Below are positions 1,435 through 19,676 of a DNA stretch of 64,000 bases, piece by piece (the stretch's first letter is position 1; every line of letters starts with the position of its first letter). The DNA lies in the sequence record MN850605.1, one strand, 5' to 3'. The notes under the pieces are model-generated. The model searched no databases and was not told the DNA's origin. It was given only the letters and a program-made list of their open reading frames with translations. The stretch comes from Escherichia phage fjerdesal. The position numbers were made by a program, and so were the translations under genes.

Positions 1435-3092
1435 AATATCTTAAGAGCCTCCTTAATTGGGGGCTTTTTAATTTTTATAAAATTTTATCGGTTGTCCCAA
1501 CCTCTGGGTCACCATCATATGTGAATAAAATATCTATCCTTCTTAACAACCTTCTTAATCTTACTCTCTATATAGTTATATAGTACTATATAGTATCTTA
1601 GTAACTATCTAGTGGTCTTAATAGCCCTCTGTATAGCCCTTCTAAATAGCCATCTAAACACTCTTCTAACAAGCCTTCTAAACAACCTATACAATCATCT
1701 TAACCATCTCTCTATATCCTCTTAGAAGCTCCTATACACCTCTTAATCTCTAGGTTAGCTATGTTACTCTCTATAGGTGTTCACTAGGTACTACTAAGCC
1801 TCTATATAGACTGTTTTAACAAACTTAACAGGAATATCTTCACAGACCTTATCTCACAAGGTCTAACACGGTACTAACAAGGTATCTTATAAGCCTGTTA
1901 TTACCTGTATTTTTAAAAGGCTGTATAGGTAATTATTCAGAATCTTAAAATTTTTATAAAATAGGGCTATCAAGTCATTTTTTAGGGTCTTTGAAGGAAC
2001 TGAAAAATATCTGATTAGGATGTATATCTGCTTGGTAGCCCTTAACAGCCCCTTAACACCCCCTTTGCAAAATTTTAAAATATCCTTAACAATCTCTTAA
2101 CAGTTCTCACATCTTCTTAACAACCCTTCAAAGGTCTTAACAGATTCTTAACAGAACTAACAAGGCTGTAACAGTTTTCTAACAAGTGCTGAATAGGCTT
2201 TACAGAATCTTAACAGATGACTAACAAGAGCTAACAAGTTAATTTTAAAGAGTTATTTTGTTAAGATAATTAACAAGTTCCTAACAAGTGTTTAATCTTT
2301 TTAACAAGCTATTAACATGGTCACTATCTCTTGGTCTATAGTTCCCTTTCCCTCTTAGTGATTCTTTAAACATACCTCTTAAAAGCTCTCTATAGCTCTT
2401 TATAAGCTCTTTTAAGTCTCTTCCTAGTAGTTACACCCCAACTATACAGAAAGCTTTTTATAGGGCTTTACAGGAGCTTTTAAGGCTATGTCAAAGGCTC
2501 TTACAAGGCTTTTACATGGTCTTAACAGAGATTTAACAAGGGGCTAACAAGTCTCTAACAAGTGCCTTAAAAGCATAACTATGTAGGGATTGTTAAGAAA
2601 TTGTTAAGAAAATGTTAAGGGGGCTAGCATTTACGTAACTTTTAAGCTACTTTATATCCCCTATAACATACTTTTAAGACACTAACAAGCCCTTTTTAGA
2701 TATTCACAAGATAGCTAACGAGATGATAAAGCTTACACCCTTATAAGATTCTTTTAAGGCTGTAGGAAGCTTTATAAAGAGCTTTTAAGGGTGAGTTAAT
2801 GCAATCCCTTAAGTTAGGTTGATAAGGCTGTTATAGAGCTTTATAGAGCGTTTAAACGGTTGCCCTTCCCTTTCGGGTTATGGGCTTTTATTTAAGTTGA
2901 TTTGATAAGAGATTATAGAGTAGACTATAGAGTTATTGCTTTTAAGGTCTGGTAAGATTCTATCGAATCAGTAGGGTAGATTCTGGAAAGGAAAGGAAAG
3001 GGATTGTATAGAGGTTATTACATAGACGTAAAAAAGCCCCTATGAGAAGGAGCTTTGCAGGTATCTGGGGCTATTTAGCCCCGTTGCGTCGA
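1435..3092. repeat. 1.65 kb ORF-free region densely packed with short YTAACAR motifs (CTTAACAA, CTAACAAG, TGTTAAG) in both orientations; G-poor top strand
   Basis: no ORF of 60 aa or more on either strand; motif recurrence read directly; lies between convergent gene ends. Confidence 0.6.
1447..1469 (+). terminator. hairpin (GCCTCC-TTAATT-GGGGGC) followed by T5
   Basis: seen in sequence directly after the stop at 1434. Confidence 0.45.
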
Positions 3093-3341
3093 TTAGTTGT
3101 AACCTTGTTTATTGTAGTACAGTGAGATAATCAAGTCACCCCAGTAATGATAGTGATGCTCGTCGTTTAATGCCTCTTTTACAGCGTCTTTCCAGAAGTC
3201 ATCAGTAGGGTTATAATCTGGGATAACTTGCTTGATAACTGTCTTCACTAATGAAAAGCATTCATCAGTTCCACCGATATCAAATTTAACGTCCAGAGTA
3301 TAACAGCCATAAGCATTGACAGTTGCGCGGATAGTTGCCAT
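3093..3341 (-). CDS. hypothetical early protein
   Basis: ORF; start immediately follows a conserved intercistronic module with SD AGGAGA. Confidence 0.5.
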   Translation of the reverse strand: MATIRATVNAYGCYTLDVKFDIGGTDECFSLVKTVIKQVIPDYNPTDDFWKDAVKEALNDEHHYHYWGDLIISLYYNKQGYN

Positions 3342-3418
3342 TTTTTGAATCTCCTAGTTTAAGGACTTTACTTAGTGGGGAAGGTCATTCCCTCCCCGTT
3401 GATTAGTAATTTACTGCA
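3342..3418 (-). promoter_or_regulatory. conserved intercistronic module, variant A (stop codon - GGGGAAGG/CCTTCCCC hairpin - CCACTAAAT - AGGAGA - ATG)
   Basis: near-identical copies at 4269, 4831, 6054, 6925, 8451. Confidence 0.55.
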
Positions 3419-3674
3419 TGTTGGCGTATGTTGCAAGCCTTTTTTCGTTGTATTTTGTCAGAATCTCACAAGATAAAACATCATATTTTGTAACCGCTTT
3501 GCCTTTGTCGAGGTCAAAGAATCCGAACGCTTTACCATCTTTGAATCCGACAACTTCGTAAGATTCTTTGATGATTTCACCATTGAACAAATCACTTTCG
3601 ATACGGTGAAATAATGCTACATCTTCTTTGTCGGTTGCAATTTGTAAAAGTGTGGTTAATTCTACGTTTTCCAT
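3411..3674 (-). CDS. hypothetical early protein
   Basis: ORF; stop codon lies inside the conserved module. Confidence 0.5.
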   Translation of the reverse strand: MENVELTTLLQIATDKEDVALFHRIESDLFNGEIIKESYEVVGFKDGKAFGFFDLDKGKAVTKYDVLSCEILTKYNEKRLATYANMQ

Positions 3675-3745
3675 CTTGATGCCCCTAGTTTAAGGATTTT
3701 ATTGAGTGGGGGAGGTCATCCCCCGTTAATGAGTAATTTACAGAT
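3675..3745 (-). promoter_or_regulatory. conserved intercistronic module, degenerate variant A
   Basis: ctagtttaaggatttt...ggggaggtcatcccccgttaatgagtaatttac. Confidence 0.45.
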
Positions 3746-4268
3746 TTTTGATTGTCTCGTCAATGTCTTTTTCAATAGCTTTTAAAGTTTTTTCTAAGTT
3801 CTTGATATTGAAAGATAAACCCTCTCCCAATGTTTTGCTGTAACCACTAGGGCGCAAGTCATGCAGTTCGATTTCTTCCACTTCGAAGAGACTAACCAAC
3901 TCACCGCTTACACTGTAAGCCATTGAAACAGTATTTACAGGGGCTTTATAGAACTTGTTTAAGGACTTGATAGAACGCTCATAAGCCATTTTATAACCGT
4001 TTAAAAGGTCTTTAACGTGGTTGCGAACGTTTTTACACTCATCTAAGTAAATCCCTAAGAATAGCGGTAATAACTCTGCTACAGCTTGCATAAAGTGAGA
4101 GACTACAACGGTTGCAACATTACGACGATGTACATAATAAGCCCCATTTTCTGATTTAGTGATGGTTGCAAAGTGTACCCCATTGCAGCGAAATTCGTAG
4201 GTATCTTTAACAGGCTTAGCCATTACAGCATTTGAACGAATGTAGTTGATAGCTTGAAATTTGTTCAT
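3738..4268 (-). CDS. hypothetical early protein
   Basis: ORF 3738-4313 trimmed to ATG at 4268 (MNKFQ...) which directly follows the conserved module and SD. Confidence 0.5.
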   Translation of the reverse strand: MNKFQAINYIRSNAVMAKPVKDTYEFRCNGVHFATITKSENGAYYVHRRNVATVVVSHFMQAVAELLPLFLGIYLDECKNVRNHVKDLLNGYKMAYERSIKSLNKFYKAPVNTVSMAYSVSGELVSLFEVEEIELHDLRPSGYSKTLGEGLSFNIKNLEKTLKAIEKDIDETIKNL

Positions 4269-4345
4269 TTTTGAATCTCCTAGTTTAAGGACTTTATTTA
4301 GTGGGGAGGTCATTACCTCCCGTTGATTAGTAATTTACTTGTTTT
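4269..4345 (-). promoter_or_regulatory. conserved intercistronic module, variant A
   Basis: catttttgaatctcctagtttaaggactttatttagtggggaggtcattacctcccgttgattagtaatttac. Confidence 0.55.
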
Positions 4346-4488
4346 GATATCTGATTGCAAGCAATTTTTTAAGTTTATCTATAAAGAATCTTTTAAGTTA
4401 ATCCCTTTTAGATAAACCCCCTCGAACAAATCTACCAATGTCAAGGGGCGTTGTCAATACTTTTTGAAAGTTTTTTGTAAGTTATTGA

Positions 4489-4830
4489 TTAACTGATGAA
4501 TATTTTTTCAGGTTTTACATAGCTGATACGCTGACTTTTTAGCAGGTCATCCCAGATTAACGCGGCGATATGGGCATAACCGGATTCACGTAAAAGCTTC
4601 ATTGTTTTACTTCTCGTTTCAAAACGGCTTGCGTAGTACTCACTATTTAAAACCGTTTTATTCCCTTCGTTATCTACATGGATAATCTGCATCACTTGAA
4701 AGGGGCTTGTGTCCTCGCCTTTGTTCCACTGTTCAAAGTATTTTAGGCACTGCATAGGTGACATCTTATCACTTACTTGAGTTGACCAAGATGAATTTTC
4801 TTTATCGGTAATTACGGTTACATAAGCCAT
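4489..4830 (-). CDS. hypothetical early protein
   Basis: ORF preceded by module variant A. Confidence 0.5.
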   Translation of the reverse strand: MAYVTVITDKENSSWSTQVSDKMSPMQCLKYFEQWNKGEDTSPFQVMQIIHVDNEGNKTVLNSEYYASRFETRSKTMKLLRESGYAHIAALIWDDLLKSQRISYVKPEKIFIS

Positions 4831-4910
4831 TTTTGAATCTCCTAGTTTAAGGATTGTACTTAGTGGGGAAGGTCATTCCCTCCCCGTTGATTGACAATTT
4901 ACAGATTTTT
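4831..4910 (-). promoter_or_regulatory. conserved intercistronic module, variant A
   Basis: sequence identity to the other variant A copies. Confidence 0.55.
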
Positions 4911-4921
4911 ATCAGGCTTGT

Positions 4922-5155
4922 CTAGTCTTTTTCAATGATAATTTCATACTGACCATCTACGCTGTCAAAATAGATACCGTCTTCATCTTCTGTCTTAAAG
5001 TAACATTGTATATCATCACTAGCGGGATAGTCTTGTCTTGCTATCTGACAGACCTGAACAGCATTTTCTTTACTTCCTGTAAACTCCTCAAGCCCTTTAA
5101 AATCACATGAATGACCATTACAAATAGAAAGGATAAGATAAACGGTTGTAAGCAT
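4922..5155 (-). CDS. hypothetical small protein with hydrophobic N-terminus (possible signal peptide)
   Basis: MLTTVYLILSICNG...; preceded by a hairpin rather than the standard module. Confidence 0.4.
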   Translation of the reverse strand: MLTTVYLILSICNGHSCDFKGLEEFTGSKENAVQVCQIARQDYPASDDIQCYFKTEDEDGIYFDSVDGQYEIIIEKD

Positions 5156-5172
5156 GATTTAAGCCTCTTAAA

Positions 5173-5189
5173 AGCCCCTGTGAGGGGCT
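5173..5189 (-). terminator. hairpin AGCCCC-TGTGA-GGGGCT followed by T-run on the minus strand
   Basis: seen in sequence after the stop of 5222-5764. Confidence 0.5.
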
Positions 5190-5221
5190 AATCAGTGTTT
5201 ATAAGGTGATTGCATAGGTTT

Positions 5222-5764
5222 TTAGAAAAAGCTCTTTAAATCTCTCTCTGTGATGTTTCCCGCTAGTGTATCCATGATGTCACAAAAAACCTGAATACTA
5301 TCCGACTGTTGAATACTTTTAGCAAGAAGCTCCAGAGACTCATCAAGATAATTTAAATTTGGGTTATCCAATGAAGGAAGACAAAAAGGCGAAAACATCG
5401 CATTAAACTCGGTTACGTAAACCTTTTTAATCCAATTTAAATCGAAGTATTCTGTAAAACTTGCTACGCCAGACATATTATCACAAGAATAATCATCATT
5501 CAGGTCATCCTCTGGGATATCAAGTTCTAAGATAACAATATTTTGGGTTTTCATCTGGAAAGCGGCCGTAATAGTGGCATTACCTAACGCTTGCTGGATG
5601 CCTTCGGCTGTTATCTCTTCCTCATCGTCGCCATAGATTTTATTTTCTGGATACACGTAAAAATTGCCGTCCATGTCCGAACAATTCCATGCACCTGATG
5701 GCTTGTCACCGTTATTAATCAGGTTGAGGAAATTTTCTTGAGTAGTACCGTGAAAGCATTTCAT
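5222..5764 (-). CDS. hypothetical acidic early protein
   Basis: ORF; D/E-rich. Confidence 0.5.
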   Translation of the reverse strand: MKCFHGTTQENFLNLINNGDKPSGAWNCSDMDGNFYVYPENKIYGDDEEEITAEGIQQALGNATITAAFQMKTQNIVILELDIPEDDLNDDYSCDNMSGVASFTEYFDLNWIKKVYVTEFNAMFSPFCLPSLDNPNLNYLDESLELLAKSIQQSDSIQVFCDIMDTLAGNITERDLKSFF

Positions 5765-5849
5765 TTTTGAATCTCCAGTTTAGGATTTAGTGGTAAAGCT
5801 CTTTATCTGGGGCTTACTTTATCGAACTATAAGCCCCTTGTAAAGTACT
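5765..5849 (-). promoter_or_regulatory. conserved intercistronic module, variant B (hairpin GGGGCTTA...TAAGCCCC - CTTTACCACTAAATCC - GGAGA - ATG)
   Basis: copies at 6581, 7635, 7999. Confidence 0.55.
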
Positions 5850-6053
5850 TTATTTGTTATTTTTTACTACTTTTAAAACCGCACGATAGCCTAAGCAATA
5901 GGAATCACCGAAGAGCGACCGACCCATGAAGGAGTCCTCTGTAATATCTTTCGCCGTGACGGTTTTTTCTACGCCGTGAAAGAGAACTACATCACCGACT
6001 TTAATATCTTTGATGTGTGTAGTTTCAATGGTTAAACCGTTAATAATAGCCAT
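5850..6053 (-). CDS. hypothetical early protein
   Basis: ORF preceded by module. Confidence 0.45.
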   Translation of the reverse strand: MAIINGLTIETTHIKDIKVGDVVLFHGVEKTVTAKDITEDSFMGRSLFGDSYCLGYRAVLKVVKNNK

Positions 6054-6128
6054 TTTTGAATCTCCAGTTTAGGACTTTATTTAGTGGGGAAGGTCATTCC
6101 CGCCCCGTTGATGTGTAATTTAATCTAT
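6054..6128 (-). promoter_or_regulatory. conserved intercistronic module, variant A
   Basis: sequence identity to other variant A copies. Confidence 0.55.
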
Positions 6129-6160
6129 CTGAAAACCAATGTCAACAATTTTTTTTTTTT

Positions 6161-6580
6161 TTAGAGTTCTGCATAAATTGCATCACAGATACCACGAAAA
6201 TCATGATTTGTCAAATTACGTTGTAACCAAGTGGCGAAAAAGTCAGCGATTGCAAAGTTAGCGTCATACTCGACAGATAGCCACACTTTAACAGCAAACC
6301 GAAACATTTTCAAATCAAGCTCTTTATTCATTACCTTAGATTTGCCTAACATGTCGGACATTTCATATTGTGCACCGTCTAGCGTGATACCTGCTGCAAC
6401 GTCAGCCAATGAGTTTTTTACGTTTTCAACGTCTAAGATAACGCTTTGAATCTTCCCAATAATGTTGTGCAATGTTTCGTCCGGTGCTGATGACGTAATA
6501 ACATTAATCCGGTTAACGGTCAAACGTGCTTTTAAGATTGATAACTCGCGATTATTAATAGCCATTTTTAAGTTCTCCAA
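6161..6580 (-). CDS. hypothetical early protein (N-terminus MENLKMAI shared with 7726-7998)
   Basis: ORF; first 8 codons are part of the repeated module. Confidence 0.5.
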   Translation of the reverse strand: MENLKMAINNRELSILKARLTVNRINVITSSAPDETLHNIIGKIQSVILDVENVKNSLADVAAGITLDGAQYEMSDMLGKSKVMNKELDLKMFRFAVKVWLSVEYDANFAIADFFATWLQRNLTNHDFRGICDAIYAEL

Positions 6581-6651
6581 TTTAGGATTTAGTGGTAAAG
6601 CTCTTTATCTGGGGCTTACTTTATCGAACTATAAGCCCCTTGTAAAGTACT
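6581..6651 (-). promoter_or_regulatory. conserved intercistronic module, variant B
   Basis: near-identical to 7999-8069. Confidence 0.55.
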
Positions 6652-6924
6652 TTATACTAAATGCAGCTTTTTACCTTTTACTATGATGTAACTCGATGCG
6701 CTATTGCTTTGCACATCCTGATAAATTCTGCGCAAACGGCCTTCGTAGTATACTTTCCAACTGGTTGGAATCTTTTTCCCGTATCCTGTAGCAGTTTTTT
6801 GTAGTCCTGCAAGTTGCCAATCTAAGATATGTTGTTCGGCTTGTAAATCCTCGAAGTGCATTACACCGTTCACATAGTGACGAAGGGTTACGTTTAAGGT
6901 GCGACCGTTGTTAGTAGTATACAT
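6652..6924 (-). CDS. hypothetical early protein
   Basis: ORF preceded by module variant A. Confidence 0.45.
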   Translation of the reverse strand: MYTTNNGRTLNVTLRHYVNGVMHFEDLQAEQHILDWQLAGLQKTATGYGKKIPTSWKVYYEGRLRRIYQDVQSNSASSYIIVKGKKLHLV

Positions 6925-7000
6925 TTTGAATCTCCTAGTTTAAGGACTTTGTTTAGTGGGGAGGTCATTACCTCCCGTTGATTAGTAATTTACTTGTTTT
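6925..7000 (-). promoter_or_regulatory. conserved intercistronic module, variant A
   Basis: sequence identity to other variant A copies. Confidence 0.55.
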
Positions 7001-7011
7001 AAAAACCAAAA

Positions 7012-7344
7012 TCAAGAGAAATTTTTTCGTTTGCTCAATTCTTGAACAATTACAGCGTAGTAGTCTTTTAAGTCACTGACATTTAAAGCATTTATCAGAG
7101 AATTATAATCATCGACTAACTGAAAATCATCTTTGAAAATGTCGCTGATTTGATAAGTTTTTGATTGAAATCTGAAGCTCATTTCTAACCGTTTTATTTG
7201 TTCATCACTTAAACGCTCCAGAAAGCTCATTACAAGGCTATTATTGACCTGTTGCGTGATTGCCTTATTTGCTAGATTATAGGCTTTATATGCCTTATAT
7301 AGCGCGAAAATGGCAATGATTGCAGTGATACCAGTCATTAACAT
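7012..7344 (-). CDS. hypothetical membrane protein (N-terminal transmembrane helix)
   Basis: MLMTGITAIIAIFALYKAY... Confidence 0.45.
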   Translation of the reverse strand: MLMTGITAIIAIFALYKAYKAYNLANKAITQQVNNSLVMSFLERLSDEQIKRLEMSFRFQSKTYQISDIFKDDFQLVDDYNSLINALNVSDLKDYYAVIVQELSKRKNFS

Positions 7345-7634
7345 GGTGTTTCCTCTTTACGTGATACTTTGCCATTTACAGTTATCTCATAAGAATCTAG
7401 TAAGTCACTTTTAGATTTTACTGGACTTTTAAAAGTATCATCATAAATATTTACTTGCAATACAGGTTTTTTATACTCCCTGCAACTATTCCATAAACAA
7501 ATCACTACACGACGGCCTTTTATTTTACCGTGCAACCATTCCATAACATCATGATTATTTCTTGATGTCTCGATAAAATCAATTTTGTTGAGTAACTTGC
7601 TTAGATTTTCACGAACTTTATTGGATAATTTCAT
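7338..7634 (-). CDS. hypothetical early protein
   Basis: ORF preceded by module. Confidence 0.45.
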   Translation of the reverse strand: MKLSNKVRENLSKLLNKIDFIETSRNNHDVMEWLHGKIKGRRVVICLWNSCREYKKPVLQVNIYDDTFKSPVKSKSDLLDSYEITVNGKVSRKEETPC

Positions 7635-7725
7635 TTTTGAGTCTCCTAGTTTAAGGGTTAATTTGATAAAGCTCTTTATCTGGGGCTTAAGATATCAACT
7701 TTTAAGCCCCTTGTAAAGTACTTTA
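7635..7725 (-). promoter_or_regulatory. conserved intercistronic module, variant B-like
   Basis: hairpin GGGGCTTAAGATATCAACTTTTAAGCCCC plus conserved leader. Confidence 0.5.
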
Positions 7726-7998
7726 TCAGATTAAATTGCCAGTTAATGATAAGTGCATTTTGTAACCTTGTTTAGTGAATACGTTCACTTTACCGAGTGT
7801 TTTTACACCTTTAAAAAGGTTATTTGAACTGCGTTTTAAGGTTAAATGTTTATCAGCCTTCACGCCCCACCTTACATTAGATTGTTTTCCGTTGTCAACC
7901 ACTTTCCCGCATAACTTTTTAGCCATAACGCGAGCGTCATCACGAGTTTTTGCAGCAATTACAACGTTTTTGATAATAGCCATTTTTAAGTTCTCCAA
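7726..7998 (-). CDS. hypothetical basic early protein (N-terminus MENLKMAI shared with 6161-6580)
   Basis: ORF preceded by module variant B. Confidence 0.45.
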   Translation of the reverse strand: MENLKMAIIKNVVIAAKTRDDARVMAKKLCGKVVDNGKQSNVRWGVKADKHLTLKRSSNNLFKGVKTLGKVNVFTKQGYKMHLSLTGNLI

Positions 7999-8069
7999 TT
8001 TAGGATTTAGTGGTAAAGCTCTTTATCTGGGGCTTACTTTATCGAACTATAAGCCCCTTGTAAAGTACT
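7999..8069 (-). promoter_or_regulatory. conserved intercistronic module, variant B
   Basis: near-identical to 6581-6651. Confidence 0.55.
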
Positions 8070-12095: not shown

Positions 12096-12787
12096 TGTTT
12101 AACTAACATAGTTTTAATGTGTGGAAGGATTCTGTTTACCTTCTGAACATTATTCTCTGTATCTTCTATAAAGCATACTATATTAAAGTAAGGAAGAATG
12201 CAAGACTGAATCATCCTCACTTTCAAACTTTCTGCACTTATAGAGTTAGTTCCAAAACCACGCATAAAAAGCAAGTAATCATGCTCTATATTGTGCCTTA
12301 AAAACATCTCAGTAGGTATTCTCTGAGATTCACCTCTTGCTGTCAAGAGTCCAACTGCTGCATGATTTGCAATTGCATCAATAATGTTGAAAACATATGT
12401 TGGCTTTGCTCTTACAGAATCAAGAAGATTAGTGTACTGTGAGAATGACCCATCAGTCAATTCCGTTGAGCAATCTTCGTGATTAAAATTTGTAAGAACA
12501 CCATCAATATCTGCTAAGATGAGGTTACCTTTTTCTACAAGCTCTTTATTGACTATGACTAAACTATCACGCCTTACACCTATAGTTTGTCCAGTCTCTT
12601 TGTCCACAACGTTCACAATTGGTTCTGCTGTGTGGAACTCTTCCAGTGAACATACAACTTCTCTTGCAGTGTCTTCAAAATCCCTGAACTGTTCTGGAGT
12701 CCATACACAGGAATCAAGACCTAACTCATGAGGATGCAAGTCATAAGCGTGGCACAGGACTTCATCAGACTTTCTTAATTTTTTCAT
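12092..12787 (-). CDS. HAD-superfamily phosphatase-like protein (possible nucleotidase)
   Basis: motif I LILADIDGVL, then LLTARG, K in SLKVRM, acidic FIEDTENN. Confidence 0.4.
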   Translation of the reverse strand: MKKLRKSDEVLCHAYDLHPHELGLDSCVWTPEQFRDFEDTAREVVCSLEEFHTAEPIVNVVDKETGQTIGVRRDSLVIVNKELVEKGNLILADIDGVLTNFNHEDCSTELTDGSFSQYTNLLDSVRAKPTYVFNIIDAIANHAAVGLLTARGESQRIPTEMFLRHNIEHDYLLFMRGFGTNSISAESLKVRMIQSCILPYFNIVCFIEDTENNVQKVNRILPHIKTMLVKH

Positions 12788-13313
12788 GATTTACCTTAGA
12801 AATGTTTGTTGCAAATTCACATTGAGCGATAACTTTCATATTGTTATAGACATCTTGAGAGTATTTCTTAGCTTTAGGGATTCTGTACGAATACCCAGCA
12901 TTATATGATGCTAAAACTTTTTGTAAAGTCTTCTTTGACTTTGGGTGACCATGTACCTTCGTCCAAAACTCAAGCTCTTTATGTGTTTCTTTTGCGGCAT
13001 AGTCAAAATCTTTTAAGAGTTTCTTTTTAGCAACATTAGGACTAATTTTGTTACGCTTTACAACAGTCTTCAAGTGATTCTGGAAGATACCGTAGTCATG
13101 GGTCTTTTTATTTTCTACCTTCAGACCTAACTCTGACTCTTGTAAGGCTATAGCTGCTAGAGTGATACCCCAACCTTTACCCATGTTATTCTCACCATAC
13201 TGGTAAGCTTTTAACATGTTCACTTTTTGGCTAATTGATAGCTCTGGGCAGTCAACTGCATAAGATAAGTGTGCTGTAAACATTAAGCACAAACCTAGAA
13301 TCAATTTCTTCAT
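12765..13313 (-). CDS. secreted lytic transglycosylase (putative endolysin)
   Basis: cleavable-looking signal peptide MKKLILGLCLMFTAHLSYA; SLT catalytic pattern QESELG...GIFQ. Confidence 0.6.
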   Translation of the reverse strand: MKKLILGLCLMFTAHLSYAVDCPELSISQKVNMLKAYQYGENNMGKGWGITLAAIALQESELGLKVENKKTHDYGIFQNHLKTVVKRNKISPNVAKKKLLKDFDYAAKETHKELEFWTKVHGHPKSKKTLQKVLASYNAGYSYRIPKAKKYSQDVYNNMKVIAQCEFATNISKVNHEKIKKV

Positions 13314-13380
13314 TGGTTCTCCTGTTTAGTTTATCGTGACAACAATTATACAGCACTCTGCACAAAATACAAATAAAAAA

Positions 13381-13396
13381 GGCCGCCGAAGCAGCC
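13381..13396. terminator. hairpin GGCCGC-CGAA-GCAGCC flanked by A6 and T4
   Basis: seen in sequence after the rIIB stop. Confidence 0.45.
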
Positions 13397-13413
13397 TTTT
13401 AAGAAATTACTTA

Positions 13414-14523
13414 TTAGATTTCACGTTTACGTTGAGAGATAAGTTCACCAGCAGTGCCAACGATGACATGCAAAGCTTCAGTCTTACCGTCCCATGCTTC
13501 CAGCACTTTACGTTGATTATCAACGATTGCTGCAACTTCATAACGAGAGGAACGCATCTTCATATCGTTGTAATCAGTTGGAACAGATACAACATCTCGT
13601 GGGTGGACACGAACTTTCAGGATTGTATCACCTGAGAAGCTGCGAACATAATCCCAAGCACCAACATGAAGACCTTGAGAGCAAGTCACGTTACGGTTAT
13701 TATCAACCATCCAACGTGGCATCTCTACAATGTTACCCAAATCGTTAGGAACTTTGTAGGTGTGGGAGTCAACCAGCTTACCTTCACGAGTAGAGACTTT
13801 CTTCCAACCAATGATGTAGCCTTCTTCATCAATCTCAACATCGAGATGAGATATGAATCCCCAAAGCTGTTCTACAGAGTCTTTTGATGGGTTTTCCATC
13901 AGTTTTTCGAAGAACATTACAAGTCGTTCAAAACCTTTATCACCAGTCTTCATCATGTGAAGAATACGGTCAACCAGAGTAGAACGCATCTCAACAGCAC
14001 CGTAGAAGAGCTTGTCACCTTTGATTGTGATAGCACCCTGAGTGAAGTTTTCGATAGACTTACGAATGTTCATCAGTTCAAATGCTTTCTTGAACTCACC
14101 TTTCACAACATGAACTACAATCTCTTGATAGTTTGGATGAGTAGACTCAACAATTTCAGATTCTGAACCATAAGTCATAATTACAGAATCACCAGTAATC
14201 ATGTACTCAATCTTGTCATCTTTCTGCATAGCTTCGTGCAGTTTATTTACTGGAGCTTGCTGTACAGTGTCTTTAACGACCTTTTCAACTGGTTTGCCAG
14301 CTTTCTTTTTAAAAGTCTTAGCAACTTGTTTCAAAGTCTTCGTAGCTGGTGTAGAAGTTACCTTTTTATTCCCTTTTAGGGTTGCTTCATGACGCTCTAC
14401 AGCACGACCAACTGAACGGGTTGAAGTGTTAAATTTCTGTGCAATAGCTGTTTTGGTCAGCTTACCTTCTTTAACCAGTTTGTAAATTTCTGCGTCAATC
14501 TGTGCTTTAGTTTTAGTAGTCAT
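13414..14523 (-). CDS. rIIB: rIIB-like protein
   Basis: conserved blocks LVDRIL, ENPS, CSQGLHV and VHPRDVVSVPTDYNDMKMR match T4 rIIB as recalled; adjacent to rIIA. Confidence 0.8.
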   Translation of the reverse strand: MTTKTKAQIDAEIYKLVKEGKLTKTAIAQKFNTSTRSVGRAVERHEATLKGNKKVTSTPATKTLKQVAKTFKKKAGKPVEKVVKDTVQQAPVNKLHEAMQKDDKIEYMITGDSVIMTYGSESEIVESTHPNYQEIVVHVVKGEFKKAFELMNIRKSIENFTQGAITIKGDKLFYGAVEMRSTLVDRILHMMKTGDKGFERLVMFFEKLMENPSKDSVEQLWGFISHLDVEIDEEGYIIGWKKVSTREGKLVDSHTYKVPNDLGNIVEMPRWMVDNNRNVTCSQGLHVGAWDYVRSFSGDTILKVRVHPRDVVSVPTDYNDMKMRSSRYEVAAIVDNQRKVLEAWDGKTEALHVIVGTAGELISQRKREI

Positions 14524-14602: not shown

Positions 14603-16969
14603 TTAATCGTAAATTGTAGTCCCTTCTGGAACACACTTCACATCAAAGCCTAAAAACTTACTCACTTCGATAGGTGATACTTTATTCCAATCTAAGTGTG
14701 AAAGCAAGAAGTTTTCTTGTTTTCTTTTTGAAAGATAGTTTGTCAGCTTAATAACCATGCGGTCACCCGCTTTCTTAATCTTTTTGTACAGTTTTGTGTC
14801 ATTATCAAGGCATGACTTCAAATCCTGAAGAACACTGATAGTGTAAGTGTATGCAAACGGTGCAGCCACATACTGAATCTTACCAAACATTGCCTCAACA
14901 GCATCTTCATTCCCTTCTAAGAAGATTGTCTTAATAGTATCCCTTGAATAACAATACCCGCGAGAAATCTTCCTGTTATTAAACGTAAAGTTTCTGGCAA
15001 TAATCCAACTGCTTGTAAGGTCAAGGACACCATTCATATAGATACGTGTCATATATCTGTTATGGTTAATCCAGTGAACATCAGTTAAGCTGTCGTTCAA
15101 GAGTTTCTCATCTACTTCAATCCAATCTTCTGGTATCTTTTTCCAATTTGCTTTTCGGAAAACATAGACTGTCTTACCTGTAACATTAGCAACTGACTTA
15201 GCTACATCTTCTGGAGATGAGCAAAAACATCTACCATCAACTGTGTCACCAACTGCCTTAATATAAAGCTGAGGTTCTTCAATTGTGTCTAAGTCCTCTG
15301 AAACCTCTTTATAGGAAGCTACAGATTCTGCTGGAACAGCTTTCCAGAGTTTTACAACACCTCTCACAGCCTCTTTACGCTGATAATGATGCTCCTTATC
15401 AGACATTTTCACAATCTTTAACAAGCTTTTATCAAGTTTGTGTAGATTGATTAAATCATCTAACTCTTTTTCAGTCGAGAATACAAACACAATACCATTG
15501 TATCTGTGGAACAGGCCTGACTCGTTAGCGTAGTCTCGACATGCACCACGCAAGATTTGATTTCGTCCTACAGTCTTCTCAGTACCGTTTTTATTGCGAC
15601 GGTCATTAATCACGAACAAAAACTGTTCAATTTGGCTTTTACGCATTGCACCAAAGATATTGAACATACTTGCCTCTTGAGTGTAGGAAAGTGCTGTTGC
15701 ACGAATCTTACTCTCTAAAGAGTTGAACTTGACATAAGCAACTGGGTCATAAAGGTAATCTACTTTAGGGATGTTGTTTCCGTTCCTATCAACCTTAATA
15801 TTACCTTTACCGTCACGTTCATAAATGACTGAGCCGTCTTCTGCGTAGATAATCCCACGACGAATGTTTAGCAATTCTTCTTCCAGAGAATCAAGCTTAA
15901 CGCCTCCCCACTCTAGCTTTGGACACACAGCATTAAACATCTCTCGTGAGTTCAAACGTAACTCAGCATAAGCCTGTGCAGCATCCATGAGTGTAGGTTG
16001 GCTATTAACTTTCTTGATAACATCCTTTGTAATGGCTTCAGTTATCTTTTTAGTAGCCTCAATGATAACATTTTTTGTCGTGTCATTCATCTGCAATGCT
16101 TCACGAGAAGCTGCAATAGCAACTGAACCAATAGGCATGTAGATGTTTACAAGGTCTACGCTCCTACGGAAAAATTCTGGCAATACTTTGAAGAAATCAT
16201 CACCAAGTAATGCTTCCATATTAACAGGGTAGGCAATGTTACCCATCACCACATTAAACTCTGTCCTGTTACCACTAGAACGCCAGCTTTGCTTATGAAT
16301 CATGGCATCATAAACACCTTCTTCACGGGCAATGACGTTCATATCTGCTAATACATCGTCGTACTCAATATTACTTTCTGGTTTTACAGTGAAGTATGAG
16401 TACACATTCCCAGCTTCTTCAAAGAACTTTGAGATACGGTGGTCAGCAACTGCCACACGTACAGCTAAACCATTAGGTTCTTTTGTTGGGTTAGTTGTCA
16501 GCTTAGTTACTTGAGGGATACCATTCTCAAGATAAACAGAGTACTTATTAACAACACCGTCAACATAGCTAGATACTGTGAATGACTGAGCAATTGCAAA
16601 TGGTGACTTTGAGCCGATACCCATTGCACCAATGTAGTCATTAGAGTCATTCTTCGTAGAAGCTCCATAGTTTAGGTACAAACTCATAACTTTATCATGA
16701 GTCAATCCAGTTCCAAAATCACGAACTTCGAAGTAAGGCTCAAAACGAGTAGGTAAATGCACATGGAATGGAATGTTCTCTTTTCCAGCTTCTTTCTGAG
16801 CATCTACTGCGTTACATGACAGTTCACGAATCACTGCCCTTTCTTTAAAGGTGTATACACCAGAACTCAAAAGGCTGAACATCTCAGGTGTCATTGTAAT
16901 CTGTGCTTGAGACGTCTCTAAAGAAGTTGAACTCTTAATCACTTCTGCGTGGTCATTTACCATGCGCAT
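14603..16969 (-). CDS. rIIA: rIIA-like protein (GHKL/HATPase-type N-terminal domain)
   Basis: AVIRELSCNAVDA, VRDFGTGL and NDYIGAMGIGSKSPF match the T4 rIIA N-terminal region as recalled. Confidence 0.85.
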   Translation of the reverse strand: MRMVNDHAEVIKSSTSLETSQAQITMTPEMFSLLSSGVYTFKERAVIRELSCNAVDAQKEAGKENIPFHVHLPTRFEPYFEVRDFGTGLTHDKVMSLYLNYGASTKNDSNDYIGAMGIGSKSPFAIAQSFTVSSYVDGVVNKYSVYLENGIPQVTKLTTNPTKEPNGLAVRVAVADHRISKFFEEAGNVYSYFTVKPESNIEYDDVLADMNVIAREEGVYDAMIHKQSWRSSGNRTEFNVVMGNIAYPVNMEALLGDDFFKVLPEFFRRSVDLVNIYMPIGSVAIAASREALQMNDTTKNVIIEATKKITEAITKDVIKKVNSQPTLMDAAQAYAELRLNSREMFNAVCPKLEWGGVKLDSLEEELLNIRRGIIYAEDGSVIYERDGKGNIKVDRNGNNIPKVDYLYDPVAYVKFNSLESKIRATALSYTQEASMFNIFGAMRKSQIEQFLFVINDRRNKNGTEKTVGRNQILRGACRDYANESGLFHRYNGIVFVFSTEKELDDLINLHKLDKSLLKIVKMSDKEHHYQRKEAVRGVVKLWKAVPAESVASYKEVSEDLDTIEEPQLYIKAVGDTVDGRCFCSSPEDVAKSVANVTGKTVYVFRKANWKKIPEDWIEVDEKLLNDSLTDVHWINHNRYMTRIYMNGVLDLTSSWIIARNFTFNNRKISRGYCYSRDTIKTIFLEGNEDAVEAMFGKIQYVAAPFAYTYTISVLQDLKSCLDNDTKLYKKIKKAGDRMVIKLTNYLSKRKQENFLLSHLDWNKVSPIEVSKFLGFDVKCVPEGTTIYD

Positions 16970-17155
16970 AATACTTTCCTCTTAGTTTACTGTTAAATTA
17001 CTTATTAAACATTTTACCAGAACCACCACACACAGGGCAACAACCTGCTCTTGTATACCCTTCCCCATTGCAGTAGTCACACTTCTTGTGTTCTGCAAAG
17101 TACTTGCAAAGAAGGTAAACAAATACTGCTACGCTACCGAGTGACAGTAAAATTT

Positions 17156-17509
17156 CTATCCAATATGCTTGCATGACTCACCTCTCATATTTTTGTAAAG
17201 GATAAAGCTTCTGTCATGAACGATACTTGTAGATACTGCAAAGTTACTTTCAAGCATCTGTTTGTTTGGATTGTAGAAGCTTTTTTTAAACTCGTCAAGT
17301 GCAAATTGGTGATTATCTGGAAGACCTTTTACGCAAACCTTTATCGTGATTGCTGCTGCGACCTTGCCAGTCAGTTCTTCTTTAGCTGCTACTAAAATTT
17401 TGTTAAGGAATTTATGACCATCTTCCGGCTTCTTAATGTTCTCCCAACGTTCTTCTAAGACAATGTTGATGTTCATCTCTTTGATTTTCATAGTATTCAC
17501 CAAGTCCAA
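17156..17509 (-). CDS. hypothetical protein
   Basis: ORF. Confidence 0.4.
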   Translation of the reverse strand: MDLVNTMKIKEMNINIVLEERWENIKKPEDGHKFLNKILVAAKEELTGKVAAAITIKVCVKGLPDNHQFALDEFKKSFYNPNKQMLESNFAVSTSIVHDRSFILYKNMRGESCKHIG

Positions 17510-17841
17510 TTAACTAATATGCCATCAAAACCTTTTGCTAAAGGTACACCCTCGTGTTCATAAAATTCAGGGTTAACTTCGAATCCACGATTTTCAATAT
17601 ATTCTATCATGTATTTCATCACAAAGCTAACCTCTTCATAGTTATCTGGGTCTCGACCAAAGAACTGCTCTATGACAAACATGCCTTCTTTTGTAGCAAA
17701 TTGGCAGTGGTGGTTATAGATGCCTTCACAAAACTTTTCAAACTTTTCTTTACCTAAAACTTCTAAGATGTCTGTGTAGGCAACTTGTAAGTATTTAGGT
17801 TGGGTAGGTTTCTTATTAAACCATATAGAAAGGTTATCCAT
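17497..17841 (-). CDS. hypothetical protein
   Basis: ORF. Confidence 0.4.
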   Translation of the reverse strand: MDNLSIWFNKKPTQPKYLQVAYTDILEVLGKEKFEKFCEGIYNHHCQFATKEGMFVIEQFFGRDPDNYEEVSFVMKYMIEYIENRGFEVNPEFYEHEGVPLAKGFDGILVNWTW

Positions 17842-17863
17842 AGCATTCTCCAGAAATTAAAAA

Positions 17864-17879
17864 GGCTCCCGTAGGAGCC
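17864..17879 (-). terminator. hairpin GGCTCC-CGTA-GGAGCC with T-run on the minus strand
   Basis: seen in sequence after the NAMPT stop. Confidence 0.6.
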
Positions 17880-17894
17880 TCTTATCATATACTT

Positions 17895-19676
17895 TTAAAG
17901 CTGCTTGTCAATATTATTTCGAATATCACCAAGAGTTGTGTAACCGTACTGCTCAGAGTCGCTAAAGACTAAACGTAAAGCACAAGCTGGATGTTCAAGT
18001 GCATCTGCAAAGCTCTGGAATCCATAGCCATCTACAGCTTTCAAATTCTCACCATCCCACATAGGTGCTACACCACCAAAGGCAGATTTCTTAACACCAC
18101 TATCTGTTTTAGGGTCTTTTGCAAGCATAATCTCTTTGCCACCAATGCTTGCAAGAGTTGCTTTGACAGCAAATGCAAAGGTGTCACGAGTCATGTACTG
18201 GTAAGTGTAAGAGCCTACACCAAACACCACGTTAGAGCTTGCAAACCCCATTTCATACAGACGCTTTAGGATTTCGTTTGCACGTTCCAACGTGATAGAG
18301 TCACCATAGATAAGTCCAATGTGCTCATCCAGTACCTTAAAACCTTTAGAGTTGATAGTTCCTCCAAAGATGTTATACAATGTCTTAATAGCTCCATCAA
18401 TCTCTGCTACAGGGCGTGTTACAACGTTTGCAGAGCCAACCATATAAGCGTTCTTCAACATCACTGTGTCAGCAACTTCAAAGTCTTCTCTGTCAACAAC
18501 CATTTCGTAGCCTTCTGACAGTAGCCATCCAGCAATACCATAGCTGACGTTTTCAAGCTTCATGTTCAGAACAGCATTCAGCATTGTGTCACTGGCTTCC
18601 AGCTTACTAAGGTGCTCATAATAAGCCTTTTTAGCGCACTCTAAGTGGATTGCTTTATAACCTGTGACAATGTGTACAGGGTCTCCAGAGTCAGGACGAA
18701 TTACCAGTTTGCCATCACGTTCCATAATTTCTTTACGGAGTGCTGGTAAGATTTCTGACACAGTTCTCCAGAAGTTATAAGTATCTGAAACAATACTTGC
18801 AATACCCGTTGGGTAAGTTTCTGTTAAGAAACGACGGAAGGTTTGTAACTCACCTTTAAAGCGTCTTTCTTCTTCAATCAACTCATTGCCACCTTCCCAA
18901 GCAATGTTTGCACACATTACAGAGTGCTCAGTGGCTGGTACAGAGCTACCAATATCAGAGATTGGGTAGGACTGTCCATAGATTCGTTTAGCCGTATACA
19001 CAGCAGGGAAGCTATCAGTTCCTTTAAAGCTGGTTAAGTGACCTACAGCGTTAAATGCGTCATCAGTAAAGCCGGACATACCACGCATAGCAAAATCATG
19101 GCACTGATAAGGTAAATGTAAGTCATTGTCACAAGTAAGGTCAGCCCACTTCTTACAGATGCGTTTGTAATGCAATGCAATAGTTGCAATGGTGCAAGCC
19201 TTCCAAATTTCAGCAGAGAAAGCATCTTCCAGATAACCTGCTACCCAATGAAAACCTGAAACAGTGTTCTGAAAGACAATCATCGGGACACGCATTGGAA
19301 CAACTGTGCCTTCTTCTACAGCGTATACTTCAACTGGTAGATAACCTAAGTCGTGAAGTGCTTCCCAATGCTCTCGACCGATAGCATCTTTACCCAGAAC
19401 ACCATTCATGACTTCTAAGATTTCATCAATGGCTTCTTTTTTATCACGTTCAAAGAAAGTGGCATTCCAGTGGTCTATCAAGTAATCTTTAACAAAACGT
19501 TGAATACCAAAAGCCACTACACCGTCAATTGCTAAAGGGCTGTTAAACCATTTATCACTACGTGGTGTTAGGTTGAACATCAAGTACTCTGTTGCGCTAG
19601 GATACTGGTAAACATGACCAGATTTGTAAGCATCTGCATTTAAACCTGCTGGTACTGCATAAAGTGATTTAGTCAT
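17895..19676 (-). CDS. nadV: nicotinamide phosphoribosyltransferase (NAMPT)
   Basis: DAYKSGHVYQYP, HDFAMRGMSG...FKGTDS, VPATEHSV, SIVSDTYNFW, IRPDSGDPV match NAMPT signature blocks. Confidence 0.85.
   Translation of the reverse strand: MTKSLYAVPAGLNADAYKSGHVYQYPSATEYLMFNLTPRSDKWFNSPLAIDGVVAFGIQRFVKDYLIDHWNATFFERDKKEAIDEILEVMNGVLGKDAIGREHWEALHDLGYLPVEVYAVEEGTVVPMRVPMIVFQNTVSGFHWVAGYLEDAFSAEIWKACTIATIALHYKRICKKWADLTCDNDLHLPYQCHDFAMRGMSGFTDDAFNAVGHLTSFKGTDSFPAVYTAKRIYGQSYPISDIGSSVPATEHSVMCANIAWEGGNELIEEERRFKGELQTFRRFLTETYPTGIASIVSDTYNFWRTVSEILPALRKEIMERDGKLVIRPDSGDPVHIVTGYKAIHLECAKKAYYEHLSKLEASDTMLNAVLNMKLENVSYGIAGWLLSEGYEMVVDREDFEVADTVMLKNAYMVGSANVVTRPVAEIDGAIKTLYNIFGGTINSKGFKVLDEHIGLIYGDSITLERANEILKRLYEMGFASSNVVFGVGSYTYQYMTRDTFAFAVKATLASIGGKEIMLAKDPKTDSGVKKSAFGGVAPMWDGENLKAVDGYGFQSFADALEHPACALRLVFSDSEQYGYTTLGDIRNNIDKQL

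Follow-up and report, generated by a model that had tools for sequence, protein, structure and literature searches.

A terminal repeat with phased iterons at the putative concatemer junction of the Felix O1-type phage fjerdesal

A 64,000-nt stretch of the genome of Escherichia phage fjerdesal (sequence record MN850605.1; hereafter the window) contains a non-coding gap at positions 1435–3092, whose limits run exactly from the stop of a plus-strand gene (811–1434) to the stop of a minus-strand gene (3093–3341). Our analysis supports, with a probability of about 0.8, a model in which successive genome copies of a Felix O1-type phage meet in this gap, as a concatemer junction, and in which it holds a 591-bp direct terminal repeat (DTR) with phased protein-binding motifs, inverted cut sites and terminase recognition. 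The gap would thus be the physical start and end of the chromosome, not an oddity of assembly or the site of a hidden gene.

Genome ends of relatives and the terminal repeat

Judged from its sequence, the window belongs to the genus Felixounavirus (Felix O1-type, subfamily Ounavirinae). The gap matches 256 phage records, nearly all of them from Felixounavirus and its sister genera, with Escherichia phage heid as the best match (94.9%); its equivalent in Felix O1 is a 1.6-kb gap between ORF23 and ORF24 (12306–13927). Several GenBank records of relatives begin or stop in the middle of this region. In the records of Pr103Blw, D4, CRP22, SPJ41 and NBEco004 the first 579–628 bp are duplicated identically at the end of the record, and all five terminal duplications map to window positions 2034 and 2624. 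In the Pr103Blw record the mapped sequence bears the annotation of a short direct terminal repeat; the 618-bp DTR annotated in Salmonella phage UAB_69 maps to window 2032–2626.

Experiments on relatives point to the same place. In UAB_Phi87, two particular restriction fragments are sensitive to Bal31, and the DTR defined by run-off sequencing measures 608 bp (PMC4837284). The UAB_Phi87 study comes from Spain, the country recorded for UAB_69 (PMC4837284); the UAB_Phi87 record is not opened at its ends, so the mapping relied on the other records. PhageTerm analysis of Pr103Blw yielded a 581-bp DTR (PMC8303462). In UAB_Phi87 and Pr103Blw alike, the virion DNA thus has the repeat at either end and its ends are unique and non-permuted (PMC4837284, PMC8303462). 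The size of the Felix O1 genome had led its authors to propose "short terminal repeats" (PMC3185647), and the terminases of UAB_Phi87 and Felix O1 have been placed in a DTR cluster (PMC4837284). From the mapped ends of relatives, the annotated DTR and the experiments in relatives, we assign 2034–2624 as the terminal repeat.

2034–2624 (±2 nt on each side), no strand: direct terminal repeat, 591 bp, by homology to the terminal duplications of relatives and to the DTR feature of UAB_69

An earlier note on this DNA, made from the letters alone, had listed a genome terminus or packaging region among several candidate functions of the gap, a suggestion supported by the physical ends of relatives that map inside it. 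The segment has homology to the repeats of Ounavirinae/Felix O1-like DTR regions with the same boundaries, and it takes the same position, in an open reading frame (ORF)-free gap between the convergent operons of the ORF23 and ORF24 sides. Compared with the DTRs of UAB_Phi87 (608 bp), Pr103Blw (581 bp), UAB_69 (618 bp) and M7 (444 bp), which occupy the homologous locus with identical boundaries at the same ORF23/ORF24 place, it shows no material difference and represents the same feature in a further phage of this genus. Since a DTR has already been determined or annotated in UAB_Phi87, UAB_69, Pr103Blw, D4 and M7, the feature is known in kind and in genus. For this large group of phages, which are in therapeutic use, genome records should open at window 2034 or the corresponding position, and the majority of the 256 do not.

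The Erwinia phages of the genus Kolesnikvirus provided an independent comparison. Kolesnikvirus phage phiEa21-4 is absent among the megablast matches of the gap, yet its syntenic gap (16472–17912) is full of the same TTAACA/TGTTAAG units, together with a CTTCTAA array. From homology of the boundary blocks we predicted a repeat at about 17026–17470 of phiEa21-4 before the record ends were checked. Kolesnikvirus records indeed begin at 17027–17029 (Roscha1, Hena2, Prophecy) or stop at 17466–17468 (M7, the vEam series, SPARTY), and a 444-bp repeat stands unchanged at either end of M7, each end starting with 5'-TTAG. The agreement of these ends with the prediction argues that the layout is shared throughout the subfamily.

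Between genera, the gap is 75–77% identical at the DNA level, compared with 61–69% (DNA) and 46–53% (protein) for the flanking genes. The higher identity of the gap argues that its non-coding DNA is under stronger constraint than the genes beside it. In agreement with the earlier note, the gap lacks an ORF of at least 60 amino acids on either strand; the longest encode 37 amino acids (1612–1725, plus strand) and 30 amino acids (2281–2373, minus strand). Homologous phages have no conventional genes at the locus, merely sporadic, tiny and non-conserved "hypothetical" calls (UAB_69 gp027 and gp028, and calls in Michonne111 and D4, the latter CDS0001). Neither outcome that the note would have taken as a refutation was observed, whether coding genes at this locus in homologous phages or a motif density no higher than in a control (see below).

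A long, conserved and ORF-poor region in which UAB_69, Michonne111 and D4 carry annotated small ORFs might encode a non-coding RNA or a small unannotated protein. However, a covariance scan of the gap against Rfam with E up to 1 returned nothing below E = 0.18, where a chance match lies on a terminator, and an ARAGORN scan of the gap detected no transfer RNA (tRNA) or transfer-messenger RNA, as the absence of tRNA-like motifs in the earlier reading had indicated. The small ORFs are not the same in different records, and the majority of records lack them. The conservation, moreover, takes the form of short repeated cores, variable spacers and insertions or deletions of whole units, not of paired stems. 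With promoter-like sites not enriched either (see below), a non-coding transcript, another of the functions proposed earlier, gained no positive support, and we consider an RNA or protein product exceedingly improbable.

Iterons and boundary elements of the repeat

The gap had been described as carrying dozens of short motifs, a fair description in view of the 36 TAACA cores that we counted there. The heptamer YTAACAR occurs 24 times on the top strand of the gap, compared with 1.04 ± 0.99 (maximum 5) in 500 dinucleotide-preserving shuffles, and three times on the bottom strand, compared with 0.79 ± 0.90. The gap comprises 2.6% of the length of the window and holds 24 of its 50 top-strand copies; no comparable motif array was found elsewhere in the 64 kb. 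The clusters named in the note, 2041–2330 and 2520–2620, are real.

Inside the DTR lie 25 of the 36 cores, 21 in plus and four in minus orientation. These iterons follow the consensus (C/T)(C/T)TAACA(A/G)(G) and are spaced mostly by 11 bp, otherwise by 9, 10, 20 or 31 bp; in an autocorrelation of the cores, z reaches 10.6 for a lag of 11 bp, 6.8 for 22 bp and 5.9 for 31 bp. Inside the repeat lie three arrays and a centre with a different type of repeat.

2042–2319, plus strand: main iteron array, 17 TAACA cores in plus orientation and one inverted (2259), spacing mostly 11 bp, also 9, 10 and 20 bp
2331–2493, no strand: centre of the DTR, with a different 10–11-bp repeat of the AAGCTCTNTAT type (2379–2422), one CTCTATA (2388) and CTTTTAAG (2409, 2477)
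2494–2562, plus strand: second direct array with strict 11-bp spacing, degenerate TTACA units (2501, 2512) followed by TAACA cores (2523, 2534, 2545, 2556)
2589–2619, minus strand: inverted array of three TGTTAAG units with 11-bp spacing (cores 2591, 2602, 2613), running inward from the right boundary

To assess conservation we used an alignment of nine genomes. Core positions score 0.958 and the remaining positions of the repeat 0.848 (Mann-Whitney test, p = 2e-11); in the comparison with other genera, cores score 0.924 and spacers 0.760. The number of iterons differs between phages by exact 11-bp units, and heid has a fourth TGTTAAG unit through an exact 11-bp insertion. The iterons are under selection as sites. 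Their 11-bp phasing, the higher conservation of cores than of spacers and their retention in a genus without detectable DNA similarity all speak for a binding-site array, which the note had also considered.

Both ends of the repeat are marked by a conserved boundary element (the slash denotes the cut).

2021–2041, plus strand: left boundary and cut site, TGTATATCTGCTT/GGTAGCCC, cut at 2033/2034 (±2 nt), from the record ends of five relatives
2613–2640, minus strand: right boundary and cut site, TGTTAAGGGGGC/TAGCATTTACGTAAC, cut at 2624/2625 (±2 nt), from the record ends of relatives

In an extended reading the left boundary is TGTATATCTGCTT/GGTAGCCCTTAACA; on the minus strand, the right boundary reads TGCTA/GCCCCCTTAACA, or TTACGTAAATGCTA/GCCCCCTTAACAttttCTTAACAatttCTTAACA when extended. 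As the two sequences are inverted copies of each other, they share TGCTW/G, a C-run and iterons that lead into the repeat. Both are invariant in nine phages from Felixounavirus, Suspvirus and Mooglevirus, and TGTATATCTGC of the left boundary is kept in Kolesnikvirus as well. The DTR feature of UAB_69 begins 2 nt farther out than the left cut: in UAB_69 and M7 it is TGC that precedes the cut, in Pr103Blw, D4, CRP22, SPJ41 and NBEco004 (two of which were opened with PhageTerm) it is TGCTW. Some variation is seen directly next to the boundaries. A unit of ~22 bp, CCTTTTACGTAACTTTGAAGTAACTT, lies just outside the right boundary and is present in 0–2 extra copies among relatives, and Moogle has a 24-bp insertion immediately left of the left boundary.

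Dense, phased direct repeats also look like the iterons of replication origins, and an origin was among the functions proposed for the gap at the outset. According to this explanation the array would be mainly or additionally an origin, where a phage initiator binds the repeats and melts an AT-rich stretch, and the location in a terminal repeat would be secondary. AT-rich stretches do lie beside and inside the repeat (GC content 20% around 1898–1960 and 25% in 2201–2300), strong constraint extends over the whole 1.66 kb and thus beyond the cut sites, and we know of no origin for Felix O1-type phages. Classical origins, however, have a few iterons of 17–22 bp, whereas the units here have a 7-bp core, an 11-bp period and more than 25 copies. 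The gap contains a single DnaA-like box (with one mismatch), no IHF consensus and no Chi site, and the adjoining genes match no initiator or other known family. Furthermore, an origin does not predict arrays that abut both mapped cut sites and point inward, and the GC skew tracks gene orientation and the mirrored flanks (see below) rather than a replication switch. We therefore regard an origin as unlikely; the proposal found no positive support.

Near the left end, the main array includes a block that is conserved even in Erwinia phages.

2062–2085, plus strand: conserved block CCTTTGCAAAATTTTAAAATATCC, 28 nt inside the left end, kept in phiEa21-4 and M7 as CCTTTGCAAAATCTTAACATATC

The block overlaps the sole good sigma-70-like match of the region, TTAACA-17-TAAAAT at 2053–2081, and could act as a promoter directed from the genome end into the genome, or else belong to the terminase site. 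TTAACA being one base away from the -35 hexamer TTGACA, the entire array might be transcriptional, either as a set of promoters or by sequestering or recruiting a phage regulator or the RNA polymerase of the host. The match at 2053–2081 fits 10 of 12 positions and coincides with deeply conserved sequence, and the 57-bp intergenic repeat of Felix O1 (PMC3185647), which we read as a sigma-70-like promoter, uses a similar -35 hexamer. Yet promoter-like sites are not enriched in the gap (12 versus 8.1 ± 3.3 in shuffles), hardly any iteron has a -10 element at the right distance, and the detailed annotation of phage ASO1A has no promoter here. The region lies between two terminators, with no downstream genes in either direction. 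A transcriptional role of the array appears very improbable.

A packaging model and its candidate recognition protein

The gap is probably a terminase recognition and cutting region, bound most likely by a DUF5681 protein, a type of protein whose gene takes the small-terminase position in other phages. In the model that we propose, the DTR would be located at both ends of the linear virion DNA, and the flanking operons would be transcribed toward these ends and halted by the terminators at the edges of the gap. Cooperative arrays with an 11-bp period place their sites on one helical face. The CTTAACA-type motifs, with their 7-bp core and 11-bp period, may likewise serve as binding sites on one face of the helix, on which a phage DNA-recognition protein would assemble to form a phased nucleoprotein array. 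This array would place the large terminase at the two inverted cut sites (TGCTW/G, C-run and inward iterons), and the enzyme would nick the strand that reads TGCTW/G, which is the top one at 2033/2034 and the bottom one at 2624/2625. Nicks in opposite strands 591 nt apart would produce 5' overhangs with a recessed 3'-OH, and fill-in by a polymerase would then provide each daughter genome with a full repeat. Duplication of a terminal repeat by nicking and fill-in is the Watson/T7-type scheme. The recognition protein would most likely be the DUF5681 protein (ORF41 in Felix O1); its identity, the polarity of the nicks and the fill-in step are the parts of the model that we infer. That the orientation bias of the iterons sets the polarity of packaging is speculation.

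Felix O1 ORF41 (NC_005282, 21665–22036) carries DUF5681 and is conserved in phiEa21-4. It is the first annotated gene past a divergent gap at 21.4–21.7 kb and is encoded on the same strand as the large terminase gene, which follows ~8.6 kb downstream beyond an island of tRNA and homing-endonuclease genes. All DUF5681 homologues compared have the same basic N-terminal arm, FKKGQSGNPSGRPKGSRN, without variation, and a helical hairpin is predicted to come after it. The beginning of the large terminase gene is overlapped by the DUF5681 gene in two metagenomic phages that are unrelated to Felix O1, and a distance of ~2.4 kb separates the DUF5681 gene from a large terminase gene downstream in a marine contig, an arrangement similar to that of Felix O1. 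Two further contigs have the DUF5681 gene behind a ParB-methylase gene, and ParB-methylase genes often precede terminase genes. This gene context suggests, by guilt by association, that DUF5681 proteins are an unrecognised family of small terminases. We tentatively extend this proposal, though the odds are somewhat against it, to DUF5681 being the missing small terminase of Felix O1-type phages: a member of a new family that uses a basic arm instead of a helix-turn-helix and reads ~25–30 iterons, inverted TGCTW/G nick sites and mirrored flank motifs, in a recognition system not yet described in Ounavirinae. Boundaries and iterons are kept from Escherichia and Salmonella phages to Erwinia phages and, together with the context of DUF5681, offer a testable route to how phages said to have "only a large terminase" recognize and duplicate their ends.

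Within the 64-kb window we found neither a DUF5681 protein nor, by tblastn, a large terminase gene. A sequence search of the PDB with DUF5681 gave no match. The proteins of the flanking genes and Felix O1 ORF49 and ORF51, whose genes neighbour that of the large terminase, matched only families of unknown function in Pfam and PHROGs, and none of these proteins, nor ORF41, matched a small-subunit family of terminases. Other leads were discarded. Felix O1 ORF51, whose gene immediately precedes that of the large terminase, was rejected as the DNA binder for being an acidic peptide of coiled-coil-like character, and ORF23 was rejected as an end-binding protein, being acidic and lacking a homologue at the same place in phiEa21-4. 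MT836812, the sole full-length match to a distant DUF5681 protein in the phage collection, has its gene near tail genes and not near a terminase gene, and is uninformative. A small-terminase chain among the Foldseek matches of DUF5681, at E of about 7, is noise.

Several observations weigh against the packaging model or limit its reach. The repeat is present once in the window, as it would be in a concatemer junction but also in a circularised assembly, and the ends of fjerdesal itself are predicted at 2034/2624 from the identical boundary sequences in relatives. The end coordinates of relatives disagree by 2 nt per side between the PhageTerm-type records on the one hand and UAB_69 and M7 on the other; this offset could be methodological or could reflect a short terminal overhang. 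As most iterons face one way (21 plus versus 4 minus), a simple symmetric picture accounts for the boundaries and not for the bulk of the arrays. The model gives no role to the conserved flanks with their mirrored motifs. The Felix O1 study reports a large terminase alone and no small terminase (PMC3185647). The AlphaFold model of DUF5681, a disordered basic arm and a helical hairpin, is of low confidence (predicted local distance difference test score 67), and a Foldseek comparison of this model with the PDB returned nothing significant (best E = 2.2). Finally, the same DNA may possibly have a second function, for instance as an origin, in protecting the ends or as a promoter (2053–2081).

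The proposed architecture resembles the concatemer junction of T7 and T3, which reportedly combines a 160-bp terminal repeat with SRL/SRR short-repeat arrays and is cut at pac sites by a two-subunit terminase. Common to both are non-permuted ends, a short exact repeat, arrays of short repeats and the need to duplicate the repeat when the concatemer is cut; the correspondence with a T7-type junction (short exact repeat plus short-repeat arrays) is one of architecture only. There is no sequence relationship, the motif and its period are unlike, the arrays lie mostly inside the repeat here as well as beside it, and the boundaries are inverted copies of one element. No small terminase of the T7/T3 gp18 type was recognised among the proteins flanking the gap and Felix O1 ORF49, ORF51 and ORF41, and the motifs are unlike those of T7. 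Without shared sequence or a recognisable small terminase, the gap may work like the T7/T3 junction but is not a member of that family.

Terminal repeats with a short conserved sequence at each edge, the two in inverted orientation and interpreted as terminase recognition sites, are also said to occur in Twort-like Staphylococcus phages, where 12-bp inverted repeats bracket the long terminal repeats; our literature search on this returned nothing. Those repeats differ in spanning several kb with genes, in belonging to an unrelated family with unrelated sequences and in that no phased iteron array is known there. The small-terminase binding sites of lambda (R sites of cosB) and SPP1 (pacL/pacR) consist of repeated boxes, and parC of plasmid R1 and the pho box are further phased 11-bp arrays. 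They resemble the iterons in that short sites on one helical face are bound cooperatively and the DNA is bent or wrapped beside a site of cleavage or assembly. What differs here is the number of copies (~25–30), the 7-bp core and the candidate protein, with its predicted basic arm and helical hairpin in place of a helix-turn-helix.

In the literature searched we found no description of the iterons, the inverted boundary element, the mirrored flanks or the link to DUF5681; the papers give the existence and the length of the repeat. Current models of DNA packaging are not overturned by these findings, and the new part is descriptive detail of the iteron layout, which is of modest interest.

Flanks, terminators and neighbouring genes

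The repeat is framed by two flanks of opposite strand composition, each with a terminator toward its outer edge.

1435–2033, no strand: left flank, 599 bp, C>G on the top strand, with four CTCTATA (1566, 1710, 1769, 1800), tandem CTATATAGTA (1568–1613) and a 12-bp TCTAAA-type array (1616–1688)
2625–3092, no strand: right flank, 468 bp, G>C on the top strand, with five CTTTTAAG (2639, 2671, 2751, 2782, 2939) and five TATAGAG (2832, 2842, 2914, 2926, 3007)
1443–1476, plus strand: intrinsic terminator of the plus-strand operon (Felix O1 ORF24 side), a hairpin with T-run at 1443–1468; the annotated terminator of ASO1A maps to 1445–1476
3025–3056, minus strand: intrinsic terminator of the minus-strand operon (Felix O1 ORF23 side), AGCTCC-loop-GGGGCT followed by T6; the ASO1A terminator maps to 3025–3054

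The hairpins at both edges, which are annotated as terminators in phage ASO1A, corroborate the earlier view that the gap lies between convergent units. The one at 3025–3056 was found by reading the sequence; a simple scan for promoters and terminators had not flagged it. The top strand had been called conspicuously G-poor, which is correct for 1435–2033 (G 12.5%) and 2034–2330 (11.8%) and does not apply to 2625–3092 (G 22%, GC skew +0.20).

In the virion, the left flank is the sub-terminal DNA just within the repeat copy that ends at window 2624, and the right flank is the sub-terminal DNA just within the copy that starts at window 2034. The left flank is 74% conserved against other genera. 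CTCTATA (four in the left flank and one in the DTR centre) and its reverse complement TATAGAG (five in the right flank) together make up ten of the 15 such sites that the 64 kb contain. Within the gap they are arranged in strict mirror orientation, and the GC skew flips likewise. Owing to this mirror arrangement, the same order of elements is met when moving inward from either end of the virion DNA.

A symmetry of this kind would also fit a role of the motifs after ejection, in which a phage or host protein bound to the DNA ends protects them from exonucleases, brings the two repeats together so that they recombine or the DNA circularises, or sets the pace at which the DNA enters; a loose parallel is the injection-stop region of the T5 terminal repeat. 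Sites are present at both virion ends and point inward at the boundaries, the sub-terminal flanks are mirrored when read inward, and the adjoining gene 3093–3341 corresponds to Felix O1 ORF23, a reported virion protein (PMC3185647). We nevertheless judge such a role to be distinctly improbable as an explanation of the array. A candidate protein is missing, ORF23 being acidic, without a family match and not conserved in phiEa21-4, and inverted elements placed exactly at the cut sites are explained more directly by terminase recognition. A post-ejection role is compatible with packaging at this site and would be an additional function, not an exclusive alternative.

The gene at 3093–3341 (minus strand), beside the genome end, encodes an acidic protein of 82 amino acids, a homologue of Felix O1 ORF23 that matched no known family. 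Mass spectrometry found ORF23 among the virion proteins of Felix O1 (PMC3185647). Farther along lies the minus-strand operon at about 3400–8000 of the window; in Felix O1, 57-bp and 39-bp direct repeats have been reported between several early genes (PMC3185647). By its sequence, the 57-bp repeat reads like a sigma-70-like promoter (TTTACA-N17-TAAAGT) joined to a hairpin, and the words TTTACA and CTTAAAAG of this unit resemble the degenerate iterons of the DTR centre.

The window as a whole (1–64000) contains no GATC site, compared with ~224 expected from its base composition, which amounts to complete avoidance of the Dam/MboI-type target. Among the database matches, the record of Staphylococcus phage SA1 (GU169904.1, 147 kb) carries a Felix O1-type non-coding region at 135357–137078 (97% covered, 88.6% identity) and also appears among the matches to a flanking protein; it looks like a chimeric or contaminated assembly.

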